NCBI GenBank assembly: GCA_036679605.1
Contig: JAZDCZ010000407.1
Coordinates: forward strand, 91,417 to 155,416
DNA length: 64,000 nucleotides
Reading direction: 5' to 3'
From: Gemmatimonadota bacterium
GTDB taxonomy: Bacteria; Gemmatimonadota; Gemmatimonadetes; Gemmatimonadales; GWC2-71-9
A program made the position numbers and the translations under genes. The notes beneath the pieces are model-generated. The model did not search any database and had not been told where the DNA came from. It was given only the letters and a program-made list of their open reading frames with translations. Shown here piece by piece: positions 22,794-58,282 of the stretch. Every line of letters starts with the position of its first letter. Position 1 is the first letter of the stretch.

Positions 22794-23687
22794 ATGAGCA
22801 AATACCATCTCGCCGCCGTAGCTCTCACCAGACCCGCCGAGGAGGATTTGACCGCCGTCAGGGACGCCGTGGCGAAGGCCAAGAAATGGACATCGGACTC
22901 ATTGCGCCGTCTGGACATCCATGACACCGTCACTGTAAAGGTGAAACGGTTCGCTAAGTCGCCGAACTGGCTGGCCATGTACAGGTCGAATTCGCAGTTC
23001 GGCCGCAACCCTATATTCTGGATCAACGAGAACATCCTCGGCGTCCTGCGCGACGAGGATGTGTTGGACTCTGAGCTGCTCAAGGTGGTGTACGACAGTC
23101 TGCTGCACGAGTATGGCCATGTCGTATGGGAATGGGCCAGGACACGGGATTCTGAGACTTACGACATGCTGTTGAACGGCTTCTGGGATGACGAGGAGGA
23201 GTTCGCCGAGGGGTTCGTGCAGTTCGCGCTAAACGGCCTCGGAGAGAAGGGATATAGGCCAGTCGTCGAGGCGTTCGCCGAGAAGGTGTTCACCCCCGCC
23301 GCGTCCGCTGAGGGCGGCCTACTTCGGCTGGAGTGTCTCTGTGCGGACGACTTCGGTGCTAGGTACAAGGACGGCGACTTGACTGATGATGACGCAGCGC
23401 ACATCGAGAACTATGAGGAGACGCGGGCGGCGCAGCTCGCGATGGCCGAGGAGGCCCGGTCGCGAGGGATTGAATGTTATGTGTCGGACAGCGACGACAA
23501 GGACTCCCACCATTCCGATGCGTATATTTATTTCCCGTCCGGCCGCATGGCCGAGGTGGCGGAGATACTCGCCTCCGTCGGCCTCGATGGCGATGTGCTT
23601 GATGTGCCGGAGTGGTTCACCGACGAGAAACAGATATACGGCTGGATCGTGGAGAAGCATGAGAAGCCGGATTGGCACGGCGCTTGA
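22794..23687 (+). CDS. Putative zincin-type metallopeptidase domain protein
   Basis: LLHEYGH and EEEFAE motifs. Confidence 0.6.
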   Translation: MSKYHLAAVALTRPAEEDLTAVRDAVAKAKKWTSDSLRRLDIHDTVTVKVKRFAKSPNWLAMYRSNSQFGRNPIFWINENILGVLRDEDVLDSELLKVVYDSLLHEYGHVVWEWARTRDSETYDMLLNGFWDDEEEFAEGFVQFALNGLGEKGYRPVVEAFAEKVFTPAASAEGGLLRLECLCADDFGARYKDGDLTDDDAAHIENYEETRAAQLAMAEEARSRGIECYVSDSDDKDSHHSDAYIYFPSGRMAEVAEILASVGLDGDVLDVPEWFTDEKQIYGWIVEKHEKPDWHGA

Positions 23688-23712
23688 CTTTCGGTTCCGC
23701 GTATGCTATATT
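23684..23712 (+). promoter_or_regulatory. Sigma70-like promoter of tRNA cluster 1
   Basis: TTGACT-17 bp-TATATT with extended -10 TG. Confidence 0.75.
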
Positions 23713-23730
23713 AGAGTTGGAGAAAGTATT

Positions 23731-23796
23731 ATGTTGATGATCGCAGCAACCCGTGAACAAGAGCAGGCCGCCGAAGCGAGGGGGGTCTCCGGGTAA
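23731..23796 (+). CDS. Leader peptide of tRNA cluster 1 (MLMIAATREQEQAAEARGVSG)
   Basis: GGAG RBS; run GAA CAA GAG CAG GCC GCC GAA GCG matches downstream Glu/Gln/Ala tRNAs. Confidence 0.8.
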   Translation: MLMIAATREQEQAAEARGVSG

Positions 23797-23854
23797 GCTG
23801 CACTTACATGGCGAAGTGAACCAGCCCTGGAGACGCGAGTCTCGGGGCTTTTTT
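23785..23854 (+). terminator. Attenuator: antiterminator/terminator before tRNA cluster 1
   Basis: Terminator AGCCCTGGAGAC-GCGA-GTCTCGGGGC-T6; its 5' arm can instead pair with GTCTCCGGG/GCTG flanking the leader stop codon. Confidence 0.8.
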
Positions 23855-23859
23855 ATTGC

Positions 23860-23931
23860 GCCCCCATCGTCTAGTGGCTAGGACGCCAGTCCCTCAAGCT
23901 GGAAACACGGGTTCAAGTCCCGTTGGGAGCA
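23860..23931 (+). tRNA. tRNA-Glu(CTC)
   Basis: Cloverleaf; anticodon arm CCAGT-CCCTCAA-GCTGG; T-loop TTCAAGT. Confidence 0.9.
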
Positions 23932-23936
23932 TTTTC

Positions 23937-24009
23937 GGGGCCATATCTCAGTCGGGAGAGCGCTTCCTCGGCAAGGAAGAGGTCAAGGGTTCGAATCCCT
24001 TTGGTTCCA
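23937..24009 (+). tRNA. tRNA-Ala(GGC)
   Basis: GGGGCCA acceptor with G3:U70; CTTCC-TCGGCAA-GGAAG. Confidence 0.9.
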
Positions 24010-24013
24010 TTGT

Positions 24014-24179
24014 TGGGCCGTAGCAGAACGCCCAGTTAGGAGGTCAAGACAGAGCGACATCACGCGCGGACAGAGAGCGTAACAGAGGCACTGTGGCAAG
24101 CCGCCGGAGTGGTGGTGGGACACCTTCGGTGTGCTGCGCGCGGGACTCAGTGATTCGGGTTCAAGTCCCAGTGGTTCAG
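24014..24179 (+). ncRNA. 166-nt tRNA-like structured RNA with Gln-like acceptor stem and T-arm
   Basis: TGGGCCG/TGGTTCA+G ends, GGTTCAAGTCC T-arm, long non-canonical interior with UUCG hairpin. Confidence 0.5.
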
Positions 24180-24183
24180 TAGA

Positions 24184-24257
24184 GGGGTCGTAGCTCAACA
24201 CGGGAGAGTGCCTGCCTCGCAAGCAGGAGGTTGGCGGTTCGAGTCCGCCCGATTCCA
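24184..24257 (+). tRNA. tRNA-Ala(CGC)
   Basis: CCTGC-CTCGCAA-GCAGG; G3:U70. Confidence 0.9.
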
Positions 24258-24258
24258 T

Positions 24259-24330
24259 TGCCTTGTGGTGTAACTGGTAACACAGATGGCTTTGAACCAT
24301 CCGTTTCGGGTTCGAGTCCCGGTGAGGCAG
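24259..24330 (+). tRNA. tRNA-Gln(TTG)
   Basis: GATGG-CTTTGAA-CCATC; U1:A72, G73. Confidence 0.9.
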
Positions 24331-24332
24331 CA

Positions 24333-24403
24333 GCCCTTGTCGTCTAGCGGTAGGACAGCGCGCCTTCAACGCGCAAACGCCGGTTCGATTCCGGTCAAGG
24401 GCA
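24333..24403 (+). tRNA. tRNA-Glu(TTC)
   Basis: GCGCG-CCTTCAA-CGCGC. Confidence 0.9.
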
Positions 24404-31121: not shown

Positions 31122-31165
31122 GACGATAATCCGGCTCATTTATAGCTGGGTACGATGGTTTGGTT

Positions 31166-31221
31166 CGGGCCGACGCGGACGGGTTATCTGGTAATGACTC
31201 CCGTCCGCACAAACTTGCCCG
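31166..31221 (+). ncRNA. Y-RNA-like unit 2
   Basis: CGGGCCGA...GGTTA...CACAAACTTGCCCG; inner stem GCGGACGGG/CCCGTCCGC. Confidence 0.65.
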
Positions 31222-31333
31222 CCCCAGTCTTGCGATGCTTTGTCTCGGCGATTACTTGCCGAACAGAGGCTTCTGTGGCCGGAGCGGTTTGCCGCCTCGG
31301 CTTTTTTTGTGCGGACAGAGAAGGAGAATGGAG

Positions 31334-32929
31334 ATGGATTACTCAAAGCATGTGGCGGACAAGACCCCGCAGTCTGAGCCGATCATTGGTCGCGAGGCGG
31401 ACATGGCCAAAAATAGCGCCGGCGGGTTCTCGTTCGAGCTAGACAAATGGACGCAGCTCGAGAGGTTTCTCGTGTTGGGTACTGAGGGTGGAACATTCTA
31501 CACAGGCGAGCGGAAGCTGACCCGGGAAAACATGTCCGTGATCTTGATCTGCGCGAAGGAGGATGGCCCGCGCGCCGTCGCTACCATTGTCAGGTTCCGC
31601 AGGGAGAACCGTGCGCCGAAGGTGAACACACTGCTCTTCGCGCTGGCGGTCTGCGCCAAGATGGCTGGCAAAGAGTCCGCCACGGCGGCCAACGCGGCCG
31701 TCACAGAGGTTTGCAGCACGGCGACGCACTTGTTTGGGTTCCTAAAGTATGTCAAAGCCCTCGGAGGCACTGGTTCTGGCACCCGCCGGGCAGTTGCCCG
31801 CTGGTACAACTCTCGTGAGCCAGTAAACTTGGCGTACCAGGTCGCGAAATACCGCAGCAGGGAAGGTTGGACGCACAGGGATGTCCTGCGCGTGGCGCAT
31901 GTTGTCCCAGAGACCGACGCCCACAACGATGTCCTCGCGTTCGCGGCTGGCAAGGCCGGGGCTGATCCGGAGAAGGCACATATGGAGATTCTTCGAGCGG
32001 CGGAGATCGCGGCTGGCGCGACCACGCCGGACGAGGTGATCTCTCTCATCCACGACTTCAGGTTGCCGTGGGAGTGCATCCCGTCGGACCTAATGAAGTC
32101 GCCGGAGGTCAATGAAGCATTGCTTCAGAACATGCCGATGACGGCCACGGTGCGACAGCTCGGCAGGATGACGGCCCTAGGGCTGCTCGGGCCGATGTCG
32201 GACACCGCGAATCTCGTCATCGAGAGGCTTTTGAACGCCGACGCGGTGAGGAAGTCGCGGATGCACCCGATCCAGGTGCTGGCGGCTTTGTCCACCTACT
32301 CCAATGGTGAGGGGGCTAGGGGATCCCTTAGCTGGAACCCGAACCAGTCGATTGTGGACGCCCTCGACGGGGCGTTCTATGCGTCCTTCGGGAATGTGGA
32401 GCCGACGGGCAAGAGGACATACCTTGCCCTCGACGCGTCCGGCTCGATGGGCTGGGGCGACATCGCGGGCATCCCTGGGCTGACCCCAGCCAAGGCGACG
32501 GCGGCGATGTGTATGGTCACCGCTCGCACCGAGGCCAAGGGCAGCTTCCATGTGGCGGCCTTCTCGGACGAGATGATCCCGGTGGCGATCACGCCGAACC
32601 AGCGGCTGGACACCGCGATGAGGATTATCGCCGATGTCAACTGGGGCGGCACAGACTGTGCCCAGCCGATGCTCGACGCCCTTGAGAACGGGATCGAGGC
32701 GGACACATTCGTGATTTACACCGACGGGGAGACTTGGGCGGGTGCTGTCCACCCGTGCGAGGCACTCAGAAGATACCGCAGGGAGACGGGTATCCCAGCC
32801 AAGCTGGTCGTGGTTGGTATGACCTCGACGGGATTCACGATTGCGGATCCAAAGGACGCTGGAACACTGGATGTTGTCGGATTCGATTCGGCTGCCCCAC
32901 AGGTCATATCGGACTTCGCTAGGGCGTAA
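31334..32929 (+). CDS. Ro60/Rsr TROVE-vWA RNA-binding protein
   Basis: NSAGGF, RFLVLGTEGGTFY, KYRSREGWTHRDVLR, MPMTATVRQLG, MIDAS DASGSM, GGTDC, DVVGFDS. Confidence 0.95.
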   Translation: MDYSKHVADKTPQSEPIIGREADMAKNSAGGFSFELDKWTQLERFLVLGTEGGTFYTGERKLTRENMSVILICAKEDGPRAVATIVRFRRENRAPKVNTLLFALAVCAKMAGKESATAANAAVTEVCSTATHLFGFLKYVKALGGTGSGTRRAVARWYNSREPVNLAYQVAKYRSREGWTHRDVLRVAHVVPETDAHNDVLAFAAGKAGADPEKAHMEILRAAEIAAGATTPDEVISLIHDFRLPWECIPSDLMKSPEVNEALLQNMPMTATVRQLGRMTALGLLGPMSDTANLVIERLLNADAVRKSRMHPIQVLAALSTYSNGEGARGSLSWNPNQSIVDALDGAFYASFGNVEPTGKRTYLALDASGSMGWGDIAGIPGLTPAKATAAMCMVTARTEAKGSFHVAAFSDEMIPVAITPNQRLDTAMRIIADVNWGGTDCAQPMLDALENGIEADTFVIYTDGETWAGAVHPCEALRRYRRETGIPAKLVVVGMTSTGFTIADPKDAGTLDVVGFDSAAPQVISDFARA

Positions 32930-38696: not shown

Positions 38697-38793
38697 CCTG
38701 CCTTGACCGATGTGTATGTCCGATATCCAAACACAATCAAGTCAGGCAGTTAGATATAGACCTTGTTTTCTTTTACCCGGAGAGTGTACTCCG

Positions 38794-39462
38794 ATGGCCG
38801 ATAAGTCAATAGATGGGTTTATAGCAATCCGTATGCCAGTAGTCGTCCGGAAACGTTTGGAGTCCGTATCCAAGGTTCTCCGAGACATTGGGGTCACTGG
38901 GGAGTGGCAGGAGGAGGGTACCCATCATCTCACTCTGAAGTATATTGGCAAGATCGAGTCCGAGAAGTACGACGAAATTGCAGAGGCTTTGCGGGAGCCG
39001 TGCAGGGGCCTGTCCCTCCCTATTTTCACTGTTGGCCCTCTGTTCACTTTTGAGGCTCATGACGGCAATATGGTATTGGCGGCTCGTGTGACGCCTAAGA
39101 ATGACCTAGAGAGGCTATTCAGGGTATTGGAGAGGGTGGCGGTGGAGAACGGTGCCGAGAAGTCGAAGTTCCCTTCGTTCAAACCGCATATCACATTGTG
39201 CTATTTGGATAACAAAGATGATTGGAAGCGTGCGAAGACTGAGATGAATCTGCCGGATGAGTTCGGCGAGCTAACAATCCTCACCGTGCCGCTCAATGAA
39301 TCCAAGGCAGAGGGACAGGATTTCAGGATCAGACGGACGGTTAGGGTTGGTCGCCGCCAAGCTTTTCATGATATTTGGGCGGCCATAACCCCAGCGCACG
39401 CGGAGACCACTGAGGCCACATGCCAGCACTGCGACCGGAACCCTCTTGAACGAGTGGGATGA
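38794..39462 (+). CDS. 2H phosphoesterase (ThpR/LigT, 2',3'-cyclic phosphodiesterase family)
   Basis: HHLTLKYIG and FKPHITL motifs. Confidence 0.85.
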   Translation: MADKSIDGFIAIRMPVVVRKRLESVSKVLRDIGVTGEWQEEGTHHLTLKYIGKIESEKYDEIAEALREPCRGLSLPIFTVGPLFTFEAHDGNMVLAARVTPKNDLERLFRVLERVAVENGAEKSKFPSFKPHITLCYLDNKDDWKRAKTEMNLPDEFGELTILTVPLNESKAEGQDFRIRRTVRVGRRQAFHDIWAAITPAHAETTEATCQHCDRNPLERVG

Positions 39463-39677
39463 GTTTATCCAAAGCGACGGCGAGGGAGGATGCGGATGAC
39501 GAGGCTCTTGGCTATATCCTTCGGCAAGCCAAGGCAGTGGAGTGGTGGTCGCAAACTCTGCCACGGTCTGAAGAAGGTGGCCCTAATTCAGATTGCCGAG
39601 GCGATCATGTCTATACTGAAGAGAGCTGTCGTGCGTTGACGGATATCTTGGAGGGTGAGGACAATAATGTTGATTGA
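39459..39677 (+). CDS. Small hypothetical protein
   Basis: ATGA overlap with upstream gene. Confidence 0.45.
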   Translation: MSLSKATAREDADDEALGYILRQAKAVEWWSQTLPRSEEGGPNSDCRGDHVYTEESCRALTDILEGEDNNVD

Positions 39678-39984
39678 AATCGCATTCATTCTGGCTGCTG
39701 GGTTCATTTTCGGCGGATATATAGATTCACGGTTTCAGGGCGGTTATGGCGGCTTCTGTTTTGGAATGATGCCTGGAGCCGTCGGGTTGGCCATGGCGAT
39801 GTTGGCATTCGCCGCTTGGTCAATCCACGCATCAAGACCGTGGTCTTGGATTCTCGCGTACATATCCTGCACCGCGTCCGTCGGGATGGTGTCGTTGCTC
39901 GGCGCGGAGTGGCTCGCCGGGTTCGCGAAGAAATCTCTAGGAAGTGCTTGTTTTCTGGTTGGCCGCGTGCTATACTGGAATTGA
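39655..39984 (+). CDS. Small membrane protein
   Basis: Three hydrophobic segments. Confidence 0.5.
   Translation: MRTIMLIEIAFILAAGFIFGGYIDSRFQGGYGGFCFGMMPGAVGLAMAMLAFAAWSIHASRPWSWILAYISCTASVGMVSLLGAEWLAGFAKKSLGSACFLVGRVLYWN
39948..39976 (+). promoter_or_regulatory. Sigma70-like promoter of tRNA cluster 2
   Basis: TTGTTT-17 bp-TATACT with extended -10 TG. Confidence 0.65.
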
Positions 39985-40028
39985 GGTAATCGCCCTTCGC
40001 GGGGTGTGGATATAAACAGGTAAATGAG

Positions 40029-40091
40029 ATGATGAACTTAACGCTAAGCCCATGGTTACTCCCATATCTGCCCGAGGAGGGTGTCACCTAA
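40029..40091 (+). CDS. Leader peptide of tRNA cluster 2 (MMNLTLSPWLLPYLPEEGVT)
   Basis: Run CCA TGG TTA CTC CCA TAT CTG CCC plus upstream TTA and CTA; matches Leu/Pro/Trp/Tyr tRNAs. Confidence 0.8.
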   Translation: MMNLTLSPWLLPYLPEEGVT

Positions 40092-40152
40092 GCTGCGCGT
40101 ACATTTTGCGTTTCGCAGCCCCGGTGACCAAGAGGTCATCGGGGCTTTTTTT
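40083..40152 (+). terminator. Attenuator: antiterminator/terminator before tRNA cluster 2
   Basis: AGCCCCGGTGACC-AAGA-GGTCATCGGGGC-T7; 5' arm can instead pair with GTCACC/GCTGCG flanking the leader stop codon. Confidence 0.8.
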
Positions 40153-40285
40153 GTGGACATGGAGCGGACGTGTCCCGTTGGGTTCAAATCCCGCCGTCCG
40201 TATATTGAAGAGAGAGAGAGATATTAAGGGAGATAAGGCGGCAGGCGTCAGAGGCTCGTTCCCGGCACCGCACACTCTCCTCTTT

Positions 40286-40368
40286 GGCCTTGTGGTGAAA
40301 CGGCAGACACGGCCCGCTTAAACTGGGCTGCCCGCGAGGGCGTGAGGGTTCGAATCCCTCCGAGGCTA
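40286..40368 (+). tRNA. tRNA-Leu(TAA)
   Basis: Long variable arm, loop CTTAAAA, one bulged base in the anticodon stem. Confidence 0.75.
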
Positions 40369-40376
40369 TTGTGAAG

Positions 40377-40446
40377 GGTCCTGTGACGGAATTTGGTAGA
40401 TGTAGTCGCATAAGCGGCTGCCTGAAAGGGTGTGGGGGTTCAAGAC
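40377..40446 (+). pseudogene. Degenerate tRNA-Leu-like gene
   Basis: Leu-type D-arm and variable arm, truncated anticodon loop, 3' end lost. Confidence 0.5.
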
Positions 40447-40497
40447 TATTGAACGCGGGTAGCCCAATCCACTCCGCGCAGTGATAATTTTGTAGAT

Positions 40498-40568
40498 AGG
40501 TCGTTGGTCTAGTGGTAGGGCGTTGGTCTCCAAAACCAAAGACGAGGGTTCGATTCCTTCACGACCTG
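40498..40568 (+). tRNA. tRNA-Trp(CCA)
   Basis: TTGGT-CTCCAAA-ACCAA. Confidence 0.9.
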
Positions 40569-40593
40569 TTCGGCGCTTTTGACAACCGGAGAC

Positions 40594-40678
40594 GCGCGGA
40601 TGACGCAATTGGCGACGTGGCAGGCTTAGAACCTGCTGGGGTTTGTCCCCGTTGCGGGTTCGAATCCCGCTCCGCGCA
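40594..40678 (+). tRNA. tRNA-Leu(TAG)
   Basis: GCAGG-CTTAGAA-CCTGC, long variable arm. Confidence 0.9.
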
Positions 40679-40689
40679 TTGTTGGTATG

Positions 40690-40772
40690 GGGTAGGTGGC
40701 AGAGTGGCGATTGCGTCTGGCTGTAAACCAGATGTCCTTTGGACTTCGGGGGTTCGAGTCCCTCCCTGCCCA
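40690..40772 (+). tRNA. tRNA-Tyr(GTA)
   Basis: TCTGG-CTGTAAA-CCAGA, long variable arm. Confidence 0.9.
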
Positions 40773-40820
40773 TATTGCATTCAGTGAAGAGAATGATAGG
40801 GTATGGGTAGAAGAGAATGA

Positions 40821-40894
40821 CAGGGTATGGGCTAGTCTGGTAAGTCGTCCGCTCCGGAAGCGGAAGAACGTCGGTTCGAATCCGACTACCCTGA
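40821..40894 (+). tRNA. tRNA-Pro(CGG)
   Basis: C1:G72; TCCGC-TCCGGAA-GCGGA. Confidence 0.85.
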
Positions 40895-40897
40895 ATA

Positions 40898-40971
40898 CAG
40901 GATGTGGGCCAGTCTGGCAGGTCGCCTCGTCTGGAGCGAGGAAAACGCCGGTTCGAATCCGGCCATCCTGA
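40898..40971 (+). tRNA. tRNA-Pro(TGG)
   Basis: C1:G72; CCTCG-TCTGGAG-CGAGG. Confidence 0.85.
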
Positions 40972-41057
40972 TTACAGGGTATGCGGTTCGGGAACTCGCA
41001 TTTGCACTTTTATCGGTTTAGGCATTTTGTGGTGTCTTGCGGCTATTGTCTGCGGTC

Positions 41058-41258
41058 ATGGAACCTGACCCAAAATGCCCACAGTGCCGCGGCACAGGCA
41101 GGATTGAGCTTTTCACCTCGGTCATCGCCTGCGAATGTCGGTTCTTCCTGATCGGCACCAAAGACGCCCTGATGAGGCCACCGCGAGCGAGCGTGCCTCT
41201 AGTCTCGCCGGATGACGACTGGTGGCAGGCGTTCAACGACCACGGCAACGGCGACTGA
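41058..41258 (+). CDS. Small zinc-finger-like protein
   Basis: CPQCRGTG...CEC. Confidence 0.45.
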   Translation: MEPDPKCPQCRGTGRIELFTSVIACECRFFLIGTKDALMRPPRASVPLVSPDDDWWQAFNDHGNGD

Positions 41259-57675: not shown

Positions 57676-57749
57676 TAGGCCGCCTCGGACTCGAACCGAG
57701 AACCTCATCTTTAGGAGAGATGCGCTCTAATCCATTGAGCTAGCGGCCT
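57676..57749 (-). tRNA. tRNA-Arg(CCT)
   Basis: CATCT-CTCCTAA-AGATG on minus strand. Confidence 0.9.
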
Positions 57750-57750
57750 G

Positions 57751-57826
57751 CCAAATGAGGCAGGATTTGAACCTGCGACCCCGCCTTCGGAGGGTGACGC
57801 TTTGTCCGAACTAAGCTAACGGCTCC
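57751..57826 (-). tRNA. tRNA-Arg(CCG), acceptor stem degenerate (possible pseudogene)
   Basis: Loop CTCCGAA, intact T-arm, 3' acceptor strand does not pair. Confidence 0.55.
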
Positions 57827-57828
57827 AA

Positions 57829-57902
57829 TGTCCCCGGGAGGATTTGAACCTCCAACCCTCGGCTTAGAAGGCCGCTGCGCTGATCCATTGCGCCACGGGG
57901 AC
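57829..57902 (-). tRNA. tRNA-Arg(TCT)
   Basis: CGGC-CTTCTAA-GCCG. Confidence 0.9.
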
Positions 57903-57909
57903 GGCAAAT

Positions 57910-57950
57910 ATAGACTAGGCAGGAATCGAACCTGCGACTTCATTCTTTCC
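57910..57950 (-). pseudogene. 3'-half tRNA remnant
   Basis: GTCGCAGGTTCGATTCCTGCCTAGTCTA, T-arm and acceptor strand only. Confidence 0.55.
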
Positions 57951-57953
57951 TAA

Positions 57954-58027
57954 TGAGCCTGACAGGAATCGAACCCGCAACACCCCGGTTAAAAGCCGGA
58001 CGCTCTACCAAATTGAGCTACAGACCC
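57954..58027 (-). tRNA. tRNA-Lys(TTT)
   Basis: TCCGG-CTTTTAA-CCGGG. Confidence 0.9.
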
Positions 58028-58095
58028 CGCTAACTGTCCTAACCCGAACCAAGTTCCCCGTCGTTCACGGGTATTAAATGCCGCTTGGATTCAAA

Positions 58096-58168
58096 TGGGT
58101 CTAGCTGGTTTCGAACCAGCGGTCTTCCGGTTAAGAGCCGGACGCTCTGCCTACTGAGCTATAGACCC
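58096..58168 (-). tRNA. tRNA-Lys(CTT)
   Basis: TCCGG-CTCTTAA-CCGGA. Confidence 0.9.
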
Positions 58169-58192: not shown

Positions 58193-58282
58193 CTAACGCT
58201 TCAACCGGCGCGGTCTTCGCCCGCCGGATATCAGAGGCCGAGACGGCCTCAAACGTTTATCGAGATGGAATTGCGTGTTCAT
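58193..58282 (-). CDS. Leader peptide of tRNA cluster 3 (MNTQFHLDKRLRPSRPLISGGRRPRRLKR)
   Basis: Contains AAA, AAG and all six Arg codons; lies between promoter and Lys/Arg tRNAs. Confidence 0.7.
   Translation of the reverse strand: MNTQFHLDKRLRPSRPLISGGRRPRRLKR

Follow-up and report, generated by a model that had tools for sequence, protein, structure and literature searches.

A candidate leader-peptide attenuator in front of a tRNA gene array on a contig of a putative huge phage

The cassette and tRNA array at 39948-40971

We analyzed a 64-kb stretch of DNA (hereafter, the window), which is the last 64 kb of a contig of about 155 kb (C343, JAZDCZ010000407.1) in a 6.7-Mb assembly of 434 contigs. 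Within it, we focus on positions 39948 to 40971, where a promoter-like sequence, a short open reading frame (ORF) and two alternative RNA structures that share one strand precede six tRNA genes, without any protein gene among the latter. We refer to positions 39948-40152 as cassette 2, one of three paralogous cassettes on this contig, and to the six tRNA genes as array 2. The features of the locus are the following:

39948..39976, plus strand: promoter, with the -35 element TTGTTT at 39948-39953, a spacer of 17 nt and the extended -10 element TGCTATACT at 39968-39976
39984..40017, plus strand: optional 34-nt insertion in the 5' untranslated region, with a small GC hairpin; absent in relatives' contigs from sequencing runs X2 and X4 and in cassettes 0 and 1
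40018..40021, plus strand: Shine-Dalgarno-like AGGT, 7 nt 5' of the ATG, read from the sequence
40029..40091, plus strand: leader ORF with its ATG at 40029, 20 codons plus TAA (40089-40091), translated as MMNLTLSPWLLPYLPEEGVT
40038..40073, plus strand: putative sensor run (codons 4-15), with Leu, Pro, Trp or Tyr in 10 of 12 codons, including the rare TTA (twice) and CTA
40083..40088, plus strand: antiterminator 5' strand GTCACC, coinciding with the two leader codons that immediately precede the stop codon
40092..40119, plus strand: antiterminator inner hairpin, GCTGCG...CGCAGC plus CG/CG, from folding
40117..40152, plus strand: intrinsic terminator, a 13-pair stem (40117-40146) with a 4-nt loop and a run of seven T, from hairpin scan and folding
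40158..40203, plus strand: tRNA remnant (3' half only, T-arm and acceptor) between the terminator and the first intact tRNA gene, read from the sequence
40285..40971, plus strand: tRNA array 2, Leu-taa, Trp-cca, Leu-tag, Tyr-gta, Pro-cgg and Pro-tgg, from ARAGORN and Rfam

Promoter, Shine-Dalgarno sequence, ORF, antiterminator, terminator and T-run stand in the canonical order. A preliminary description of the segment, made from the sequence alone, had drawn attention to TTA (codon 4), CTA (codon 6) and the run CCA TGG TTA CTC CCA TAT CTG CCC (codons 8-15), all of which are present, and had listed the same six downstream tRNA genes, each of which was called by both programs. The promoter sits within the 3' end of the preceding ORF and aligns column for column with that of cassette 1 (TTGACT-17-TATATT), which scored 10/12 with a TG in the promoter scan. 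At the Shine-Dalgarno position, cassettes 0 and 1 and two orthologues of cassette 1 described below (L133 and L134) have GGTGA, GGAG or GGAGG.

In the contigs of relatives from runs X2 and X4, position 39983 is joined directly to 40018, with the 34 nt of the insertion missing and 6 nt shared at the joint. The insertion is flanked by a 6-nt repeat, and a similar one is found in L134. In the minimum free energy (MFE) fold it pairs with the purine-rich stretch just 5' of the switch strand, and it could act as an optional anti-antiterminator.

Downstream of the terminator, ARAGORN called no gene at the tRNA remnant (40158-40203) even with relaxed settings. A relative's contig carries 52 extra letters at 40172-40180, so that the window may have lost the first tRNA gene of array 2. 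Similar tRNA-like remnants or unrecognised genes (T-arm and acceptor pieces) lie inside the arrays at 40380-40496 and 24010-24183. The promoter scan flagged no promoter-like site between the cassette 2 terminator and array 2.

Alternative RNA structures, paralogous cassettes and codon content

We folded the nascent RNA as it would be once the terminator 5' arm had been completed. In this fold, GTCACC (40083-40088) pairs with GGTGAC (40123-40128) around the inner hairpin at 40092-40119, and the antiterminator previously read from the sequence, GTCACC/GGTGAC with its GCTGCG/CGCAGC hairpin, is formed. GGTGAC lies in the terminator 5' arm and is the strand common to both structures. The antiterminator formed in the nascent RNA of 9/9 homologues, and only partially in cassette 0; in the nascent folds of the nine homologues, antiterminators had energies of -19.6 to -26.8 kcal/mol, compared with -17.2 to -26.2 kcal/mol for the terminators alone. 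The sequence of the inner hairpin is different in every paralogue, yet a hairpin is found there in 9/9 homologues. Furthermore, a G.U pair of the terminator (G40124-T40139) is invariant in 7/7 homologues, and the same G pairs with a C in the antiterminator. In a model-fitted alignment of 10 homologues, 89.7% of the cells of the antiterminator helix were paired, whereas this value was 27-59% when the partner columns were slid. The 13-pair terminator hairpin is present in the MFE fold, and a z-score of -3.05 was obtained for the whole leader.

The layout of start codon, ribosome-binding site and short ORF that characterizes attenuators was found in 5/5 phage-type copies. An ORF ending at the switch strand was found in 9/9 homologues, its stop codon abutting the antiterminator 5' strand in 5/5 phage-type and 4/4 closely related Acidobacteriota-type copies. 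When a ribosome was modelled on the stop codon, only the terminator remained.

Three of the four tRNA arrays on C343 are headed by a member of this cassette family. Each of the three paralogous cassettes is composed of promoter, Shine-Dalgarno sequence, leader and switch, and each heads a different array:

23684..23854, plus strand: cassette 1, with promoter (23684-23712), leader (23731-23796, MLMIAATREQEQAAEARGVSG), switch and a T-run ending at 23854
23860..24403, plus strand: array 1, Glu-ctc, Ala-ggc, Ala-cgc, Gln-ttg and a 71-nt tRNA with anticodon tca, from ARAGORN and Rfam
about 61519-61720 of C343, outside the window, minus strand: cassette 0, the third paralogue, with leader MQTSASTFRNDMAGTTNNGTRGRRCVLG, from alignment and the covariance model R1 (see below)

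The first tRNA gene of array 1 begins 5 nt past the T-run of cassette 1, a spacing at which expression of the array would depend on transcription passing the terminator. Array 0 comprises Thr-cgt, Gly-gcc, Gly-tcc, Asn-gtt (twice), Met-cat, Thr-tgt and an odd 70-nt tRNA gene; the latter is the first of the array, and the anticodon called for it (gta) is uncertain. Outside the leader core, the alignment of the three cassettes extends from the -35 element through the T-run: promoter, Shine-Dalgarno sequence, a purine-rich stretch, leader tail, GTC-containing strand, TAAGCT, antiterminator and terminator are common to the three, whereas the cores of the leaders are completely different.

We compared leaders and arrays in a 4 x 4 matrix that included a Lys/Arg pair described below, taking codon usage in 90 long ORFs of C343 as the background. 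Amino acids of the own array account for 13/27 codons of the leader in cassette 0 (P=0.003), 10/20 in cassette 1 (P=0.002) and 10/19 in cassette 2 (P=0.0006; Leu, Pro, Trp and Tyr, with a background of 0.177), giving a Fisher's combined P of 7e-7 for the three cassettes, whereas all 12 off-diagonal combinations of leader and array had P>0.2. These data fit the earlier inference that the sensing codons had been replaced to suit a different tRNA set, each core matching its own array only. Leaving out the last five codons, which correspond to the switch strand and linker, the fractions are 12/22, 10/15 and 10/14 for cassettes 0, 1 and 2, respectively, and codons 2-15 of leader 2 include 10/14 own-array codons (P=1.5e-5). 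At the level of anticodons, a Watson-Crick cognate codon is present in the own leader for 4/6 tRNAs of array 2, 4/5 of array 1 and 6/7 distinct anticodons of array 0. In addition, TTA and CTA are used at 4.5 and 6.8 per 1000 codons in the long ORFs of C343, and leader 2 holds TTA twice together with CTA.

The one unmatched tRNA in cassette 1, as also in L134, is the 71-nt tRNA with anticodon tca, for which the cognate would be a stop codon. This gene (24333-24403, plus strand) closes array 1 and is kept in L134. The selenocysteine identity given to it by ARAGORN was rejected, the gene being far too short. Reading TGA as sense lengthens the longest frame only from 3416 to 3449 codons and leaves the others little changed, so that this tRNA is not explained by recoding on C343.

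A further array is preceded by an ORF of another kind:

58193..58282, minus strand: candidate leader of different build, a 29-codon ORF 5' of an array of Lys-ctt, Lys-ttt, Arg-tct and Arg-cct (57676-58168)

Lys or Arg occupies 10/28 of its codons (P=0.00055), with AAA, AAG, AGA and AGG once each, and its region folds into three hairpins without a U-tailed terminator. It was rejected as a member of the cassette family, lacking such a terminator and any match to model R1, and may be a codon-matched leader of another build.

Homologues in other genomes and metagenomes

The covariance model R1 of the switch was built from nine homologues. In the 6.7-Mb assembly it gave exactly three matches, each directly 5' of a tRNA array on C343. 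In 150 relatives it found no real copy, a single weak extra match being a plain terminator, and in 150 genomes of the phylum Acidobacteriota it gave two matches only. Among three extra R1 matches, L147 and L153 were rejected as plain terminators and L152 alone is a distant relative. None of 400 further genomes from the assembly's own phylum contained the exact pattern, and pattern scans for the switch in IMG/VR returned 0 hits. A loose terminator pattern retrieved more than 120 unrelated loci from genome contigs among the matches listed, mostly ordinary terminators; further members of the family may exist beyond these.

A scan of metagenomes for the terminator returned 16 loci, two of which, L133 and L134, are orthologues of cassette 1 that retain promoter, Shine-Dalgarno sequence and leader core, with the first tRNA gene 5 nt (L133) or 8 nt (L134) past the matched terminator. 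Glu-ttc, Ala-tgc and Gln-ctg are additionally present in the arrays of these loci and provide cognates for the GAA, GCA and CAG codons that are orphan in the window, and Watson-Crick cognate codons are present for 6/6 distinct anticodons in L133 (P=0.0002) and 6/7 in L134 (P=0.0015). A locus of a different kind, L135, was observed on an AT-rich, unrelated phage metagenome contig (minus strand, about 2368-2540), where a 35-codon ORF is followed by an array of 10 tRNA genes; a strand there could pair with the 5' arm of a related terminator, and so many amino acids are served by this array that a match between leader and array would carry little information.

Cassette 2 itself is covered by relatives' contigs in four sequencing runs from four studies (marine, vent and sediment). 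Considering only the best-supported differences rather than whole contigs, identity is about 97% in the cassette compared with about 87% in its flanks. In run X4, for instance, the contig differs at 5 of the 155 positions of 40018-40172, whereas the 59 nt preceding this stretch contain 7 differences and the 191 nt following it contain 16, together with 9 gaps. Two changes in the leader are common to all four runs, TTA>TTG at 40058 and CCA>CCG at 40064; both are synonymous and yield codons still read by tRNAs of the array, CCG being the Pro-cgg cognate that is missing from cassette 2 of the window. Besides, the A>G change at 40127 in the relatives retains a G.U pair in both helices.

A homologous switch was also found in four Acidobacteriota genomes (L031, L056, L063 and L126), with the more distant L152. 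It has the same terminator sequence and G.U pair and the same pairing between leader strand and 5' arm, and it scores 69-80 bits with a second model, R2. Each genome has a single copy, located on the chromosome among ETF, ADH and SPFH genes. Its leader of about 41 codons is conserved, ends in AVCRPPG and has its stop codon at the switch strand. A tRNA gene follows 92-220 nt downstream of the switch; this gene is orthologous among the genomes, and its anticodon varies from one to another (cat, tga, aag, tgg). Other odd tRNAs follow in these loci, some of them scoring as tRNA-Sec-like. Terminator, G.U pair, strand pairing, position of the ORF stop and the tRNA downstream are thus common to the Acidobacteriota element and the phage cassettes; however, the former is single-copy with a conserved leader that is not codon-matched, whereas the chassis of the latter is used three times with codon-matched leaders.

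Proposed mechanism, rival explanations and significance

We propose that positions 39948-40152 control the phage tRNA array by transcription attenuation of the ribosome-mediated (leader-peptide) type and thereby feed back on tRNA supply, a reading to which we assign a probability of about 0.75. It builds on an anatomy, a paralogy, a specificity of codons for arrays, a set of alternative pairings and a conservation in relatives that are established in silico; leader translation, ribosome stalling and read-through are the steps that we infer. Transcription would start at the sigma-70-type promoter and a ribosome would load on the 20-codon leader, in which the sensor codons (4-15) would be Leu TTA, CTA, CTC and CTG, Pro CCA and CCC, Trp TGG and Tyr TAT. 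If these were decoded promptly, the ribosome at the TAA would cover GTCACC together with the 5' half of the inner hairpin, the 13-pair terminator would form and RNA polymerase would stop at the T-run. If charged cognate tRNA were scarce, the ribosome would stall inside the sensor run and leave GTCACC free to pair with GGTGAC once the latter is made; no terminator would form and transcription would enter the six tRNA genes. The phage would probably transcribe the tRNAs of an array only when ribosomes read the matching codons slowly. As the genes under control encode the very tRNAs that decode the sensor run, this would constitute a negative feedback on decoding capacity. The same chassis would be used three times in the phage, with one set of sensor codons per tRNA array, and would be blind to the difference between low tRNA and low charging.

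Several observations weigh against this proposal. First, the full-length RNA at equilibrium favours the terminator in 4/5 phage-type copies even with the leader free, and simulated ribosome occlusion at equilibrium did not switch the MFE structure to the antiterminator in 4/5 copies; the model therefore needs kinetic, co-transcriptional folding, as for classical attenuators. Second, the sequences upstream and downstream of the leader are not all strong: the cassette 2 promoter was missed by the promoter scan and matches only 3/6 positions in its -35 element, the Shine-Dalgarno sequence (AGGT) is weak, and a 133-nt spacer with a tRNA remnant, in which an unrecognised promoter is possible, lies before the first intact tRNA gene. 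Third, the codon match is weaker under strict wobble, with 12/27 codons in cassette 0 (P=0.003), 8/19 in cassette 2 (P=0.0014) and just 6/20 in cassette 1 (P=0.089). In cassette 1, GCA (twice) and GAA (twice) are without a cognate tRNA in the array of the window; in cassette 2, strict wobble leaves CTC and CCC unread, TAT is the sole Tyr codon, and CCG, the cognate of Pro-cgg, is missing. Fourth, all members of the family that were found come from a single phage lineage (0/150 relatives, 0/400 genomes of the assembly's phylum and 0 hits in IMG/VR).

Covariation belongs among these points as well. The preliminary description had reported that three strands change together between cassettes 1 and 2, and this change is real: GTCTCC/GGAGAC with GTCT in the terminator 3' arm of cassette 1 is replaced by GTCACC/GGTGAC with GTCA in cassette 2. 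The inference that both structures are maintained by selection is supported, as the antiterminator is kept in 9/9 homologues and the switch is far better conserved than its flanks. Nevertheless, covariation was not significant: one pair is altered on both sides, and 140/500 shuffles reach the observed score. The covariation seen is thus anecdotal, comprising the A/T/A triple of cassette 2, which is a single event, along with a change from C-G to U-A read in L152, and the support for the switch comes from conservation, architecture and codon matching instead of covariation statistics.

Among the rival explanations, the one that survives best is that the switch senses the general status of translation or of its coupling to transcription (ribosome availability, overall starvation or host shut-off), with codon content being secondary. 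The multivalency of the leaders speaks for it, since a leader such as that of cassette 2, with codons for four amino acids, would stall ribosomes in any broad slowdown; so do the imperfect matches at the strict codon level and the fact that stalling does not discriminate between low tRNA and low charging. However, a general sensor would have no need for three codon sets on one chassis, and each leader is enriched solely for the amino acids of its own array, uses rare cognate codons and holds a Watson-Crick codon for nearly every anticodon, with no signal in the 12 off-diagonal cells. On this balance we consider it unlikely.

Slightly less likely still is the view that an ordinary promoter precedes a terminator that either is intrinsic and leaky or releases a functional small RNA, the ORF being fortuitous and untranslated. 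Such hairpins are common, as evidenced by the ordinary terminators that make up most of the unrelated loci retrieved with the loose pattern, and the Shine-Dalgarno sequence of cassette 2 is poor. Nonetheless, a fortuitous ORF would not be expected to end exactly at the antiterminator strand in every one of nine homologues or to differ between relatives by synonymous changes, the specificity of codons for arrays is unexplained without translation, and the antiterminator helix is paired far more often than in the slid controls.

Direct binding of tRNA by the leader RNA, as in T-box riboswitches, which likewise sense tRNA charging through an antiterminator/terminator switch in a setting where regulated genes and signal both concern tRNA, is highly improbable: T-boxes bind uncharged tRNA without a ribosome by means of a specifier loop and a T-box sequence, neither of which is found in the mere 124 nt from start codon to T-run, a single RNA would have to read six tRNAs, and neither a T-box nor any other Rfam family was matched even at E<=1, where positions 39900-40520 gave only sub-threshold small-RNA matches of 15-20 bits.

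The closest known counterparts of the attenuator that we propose are the multivalent leader-peptide attenuators of enterobacterial amino-acid operons, such as the ilvGMEDA and thr leaders, along with trpL, hisL, leuL and pheL; in E. coli, a leader peptide also precedes the synthetase gene in pheST. Like the enterobacterial attenuators, the cassettes combine a short leader in which regulatory codons for several amino acids are frequent with a stop codon at which a terminating ribosome would mask the antiterminator strand; in both, antiterminator and intrinsic terminator exclude each other, and a U-run lies immediately 5' of the regulated genes. Of the structural traits of the class, cassette 2 has the leader ORF with a ribosome-binding site, the cognate codons, the intrinsic terminator and the antiterminator that shares a strand with it; it departs from the class in that the regulated genes are tRNA genes instead of genes for amino-acid biosynthesis, transport or synthetase proteins, so that the loop would close on tRNA supply. 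It also differs in belonging to a huge-phage-like contig on which one chassis recurs three times, each time with another codon set. To our knowledge, all described leader-peptide attenuators regulate protein genes for amino-acid biosynthesis, transport or aminoacyl-tRNA synthetases. Among synthetase genes, leader peptides have been described before cysS and others in Deinococcus deserti, in a paper that deals with synthetase and biosynthesis leaders (PMC4007540). Synthetase leaders have protein-coding targets and single-amino-acid specificity, whereas cassette 2 has tRNA products and a multivalent sensor.

No Rfam leader family (Trp, His, Leu, Thr leaders and others) reached its gathering score in the window. 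A full-text literature search, with most subscription journals outside its coverage, returned no account of leader-peptide attenuation of tRNA genes; PMC8860593 is about CRISPR spacer uptake. Leader-peptide attenuation is known as a mechanism, and the control of tRNA genes by it would be new.

The genomic context suggests a phage. C343 has a GC content of 0.556 compared with 0.582 for the whole assembly, and carries 24 of the 95 tRNA genes called in the latter by ARAGORN. Its genes encode FtsH, a Vps4-like AAA ATPase, Ro60/TROVE, topoisomerase VI-B, a LigT-like 2H phosphoesterase, several DNA methylases, a clamp loader, a translation initiation factor, a head-maturation protease, a 3415-aa protein and DnaK. 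Most ORFs of the contig had no PHROG match, and neither a terminase nor a capsid gene was found on it. We take C343 to be part of the genome of a huge phage that was placed in a bacterial bin. The assembly, with 6.7 Mb and 6.3% contamination as against 3.7 Mb for a genome of the same genus, probably contains extra DNA such as this contig. A 632-aa neighbour protein was rejected as a lineage marker, being DnaK-like and matching many huge phages and bacteria; used as a query, it found 0 relatives in IMG/VR. A blastn search with positions 39600-41100 against deposited phages matched tRNA genes only. The LigT-like 2H phosphoesterase is encoded at 38710-39462 (plus strand), just 5' of cassette 2, and the Ro60/TROVE protein at 31160-32929 (plus strand), 7 kb 5' of it; such RNA repair or quality-control genes near the tRNA arrays would fit a context of tRNA damage.

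It is tempting to speculate that the cassettes represent a modular, duplicating sensor, in which a fixed promoter-plus-switch chassis with swapped codon sets provides closed-loop decoding control for each array and serves as an on-demand counter-defence that replaces host tRNAs depleted or cleaved during infection, for instance by anticodon nucleases. We advance this wider idea only tentatively and would not bet on it. The chassis held in common with the Acidobacteriota element, which would gate an odd tRNA, hints at an older and wider class of translation-sensing control of tRNA genes.

Whereas leader-peptide attenuation is textbook knowledge for genes that make or charge amino acids, it is not so for tRNA genes. 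If the proposed mechanism is true, the phage would gauge the speed at which particular codons are read and reply by transcribing the tRNAs that read them. This would explain how large phages control their numerous tRNA genes and would provide a direct link between phage tRNAs and the depletion or cleavage of host tRNAs. The three paralogues within one genome, with the same chassis and differing sensor codons and tRNA sets, amount to a natural swap experiment, and the cassette would be a compact, reprogrammable part of about 200 nt that senses decoding capacity through swappable codons.

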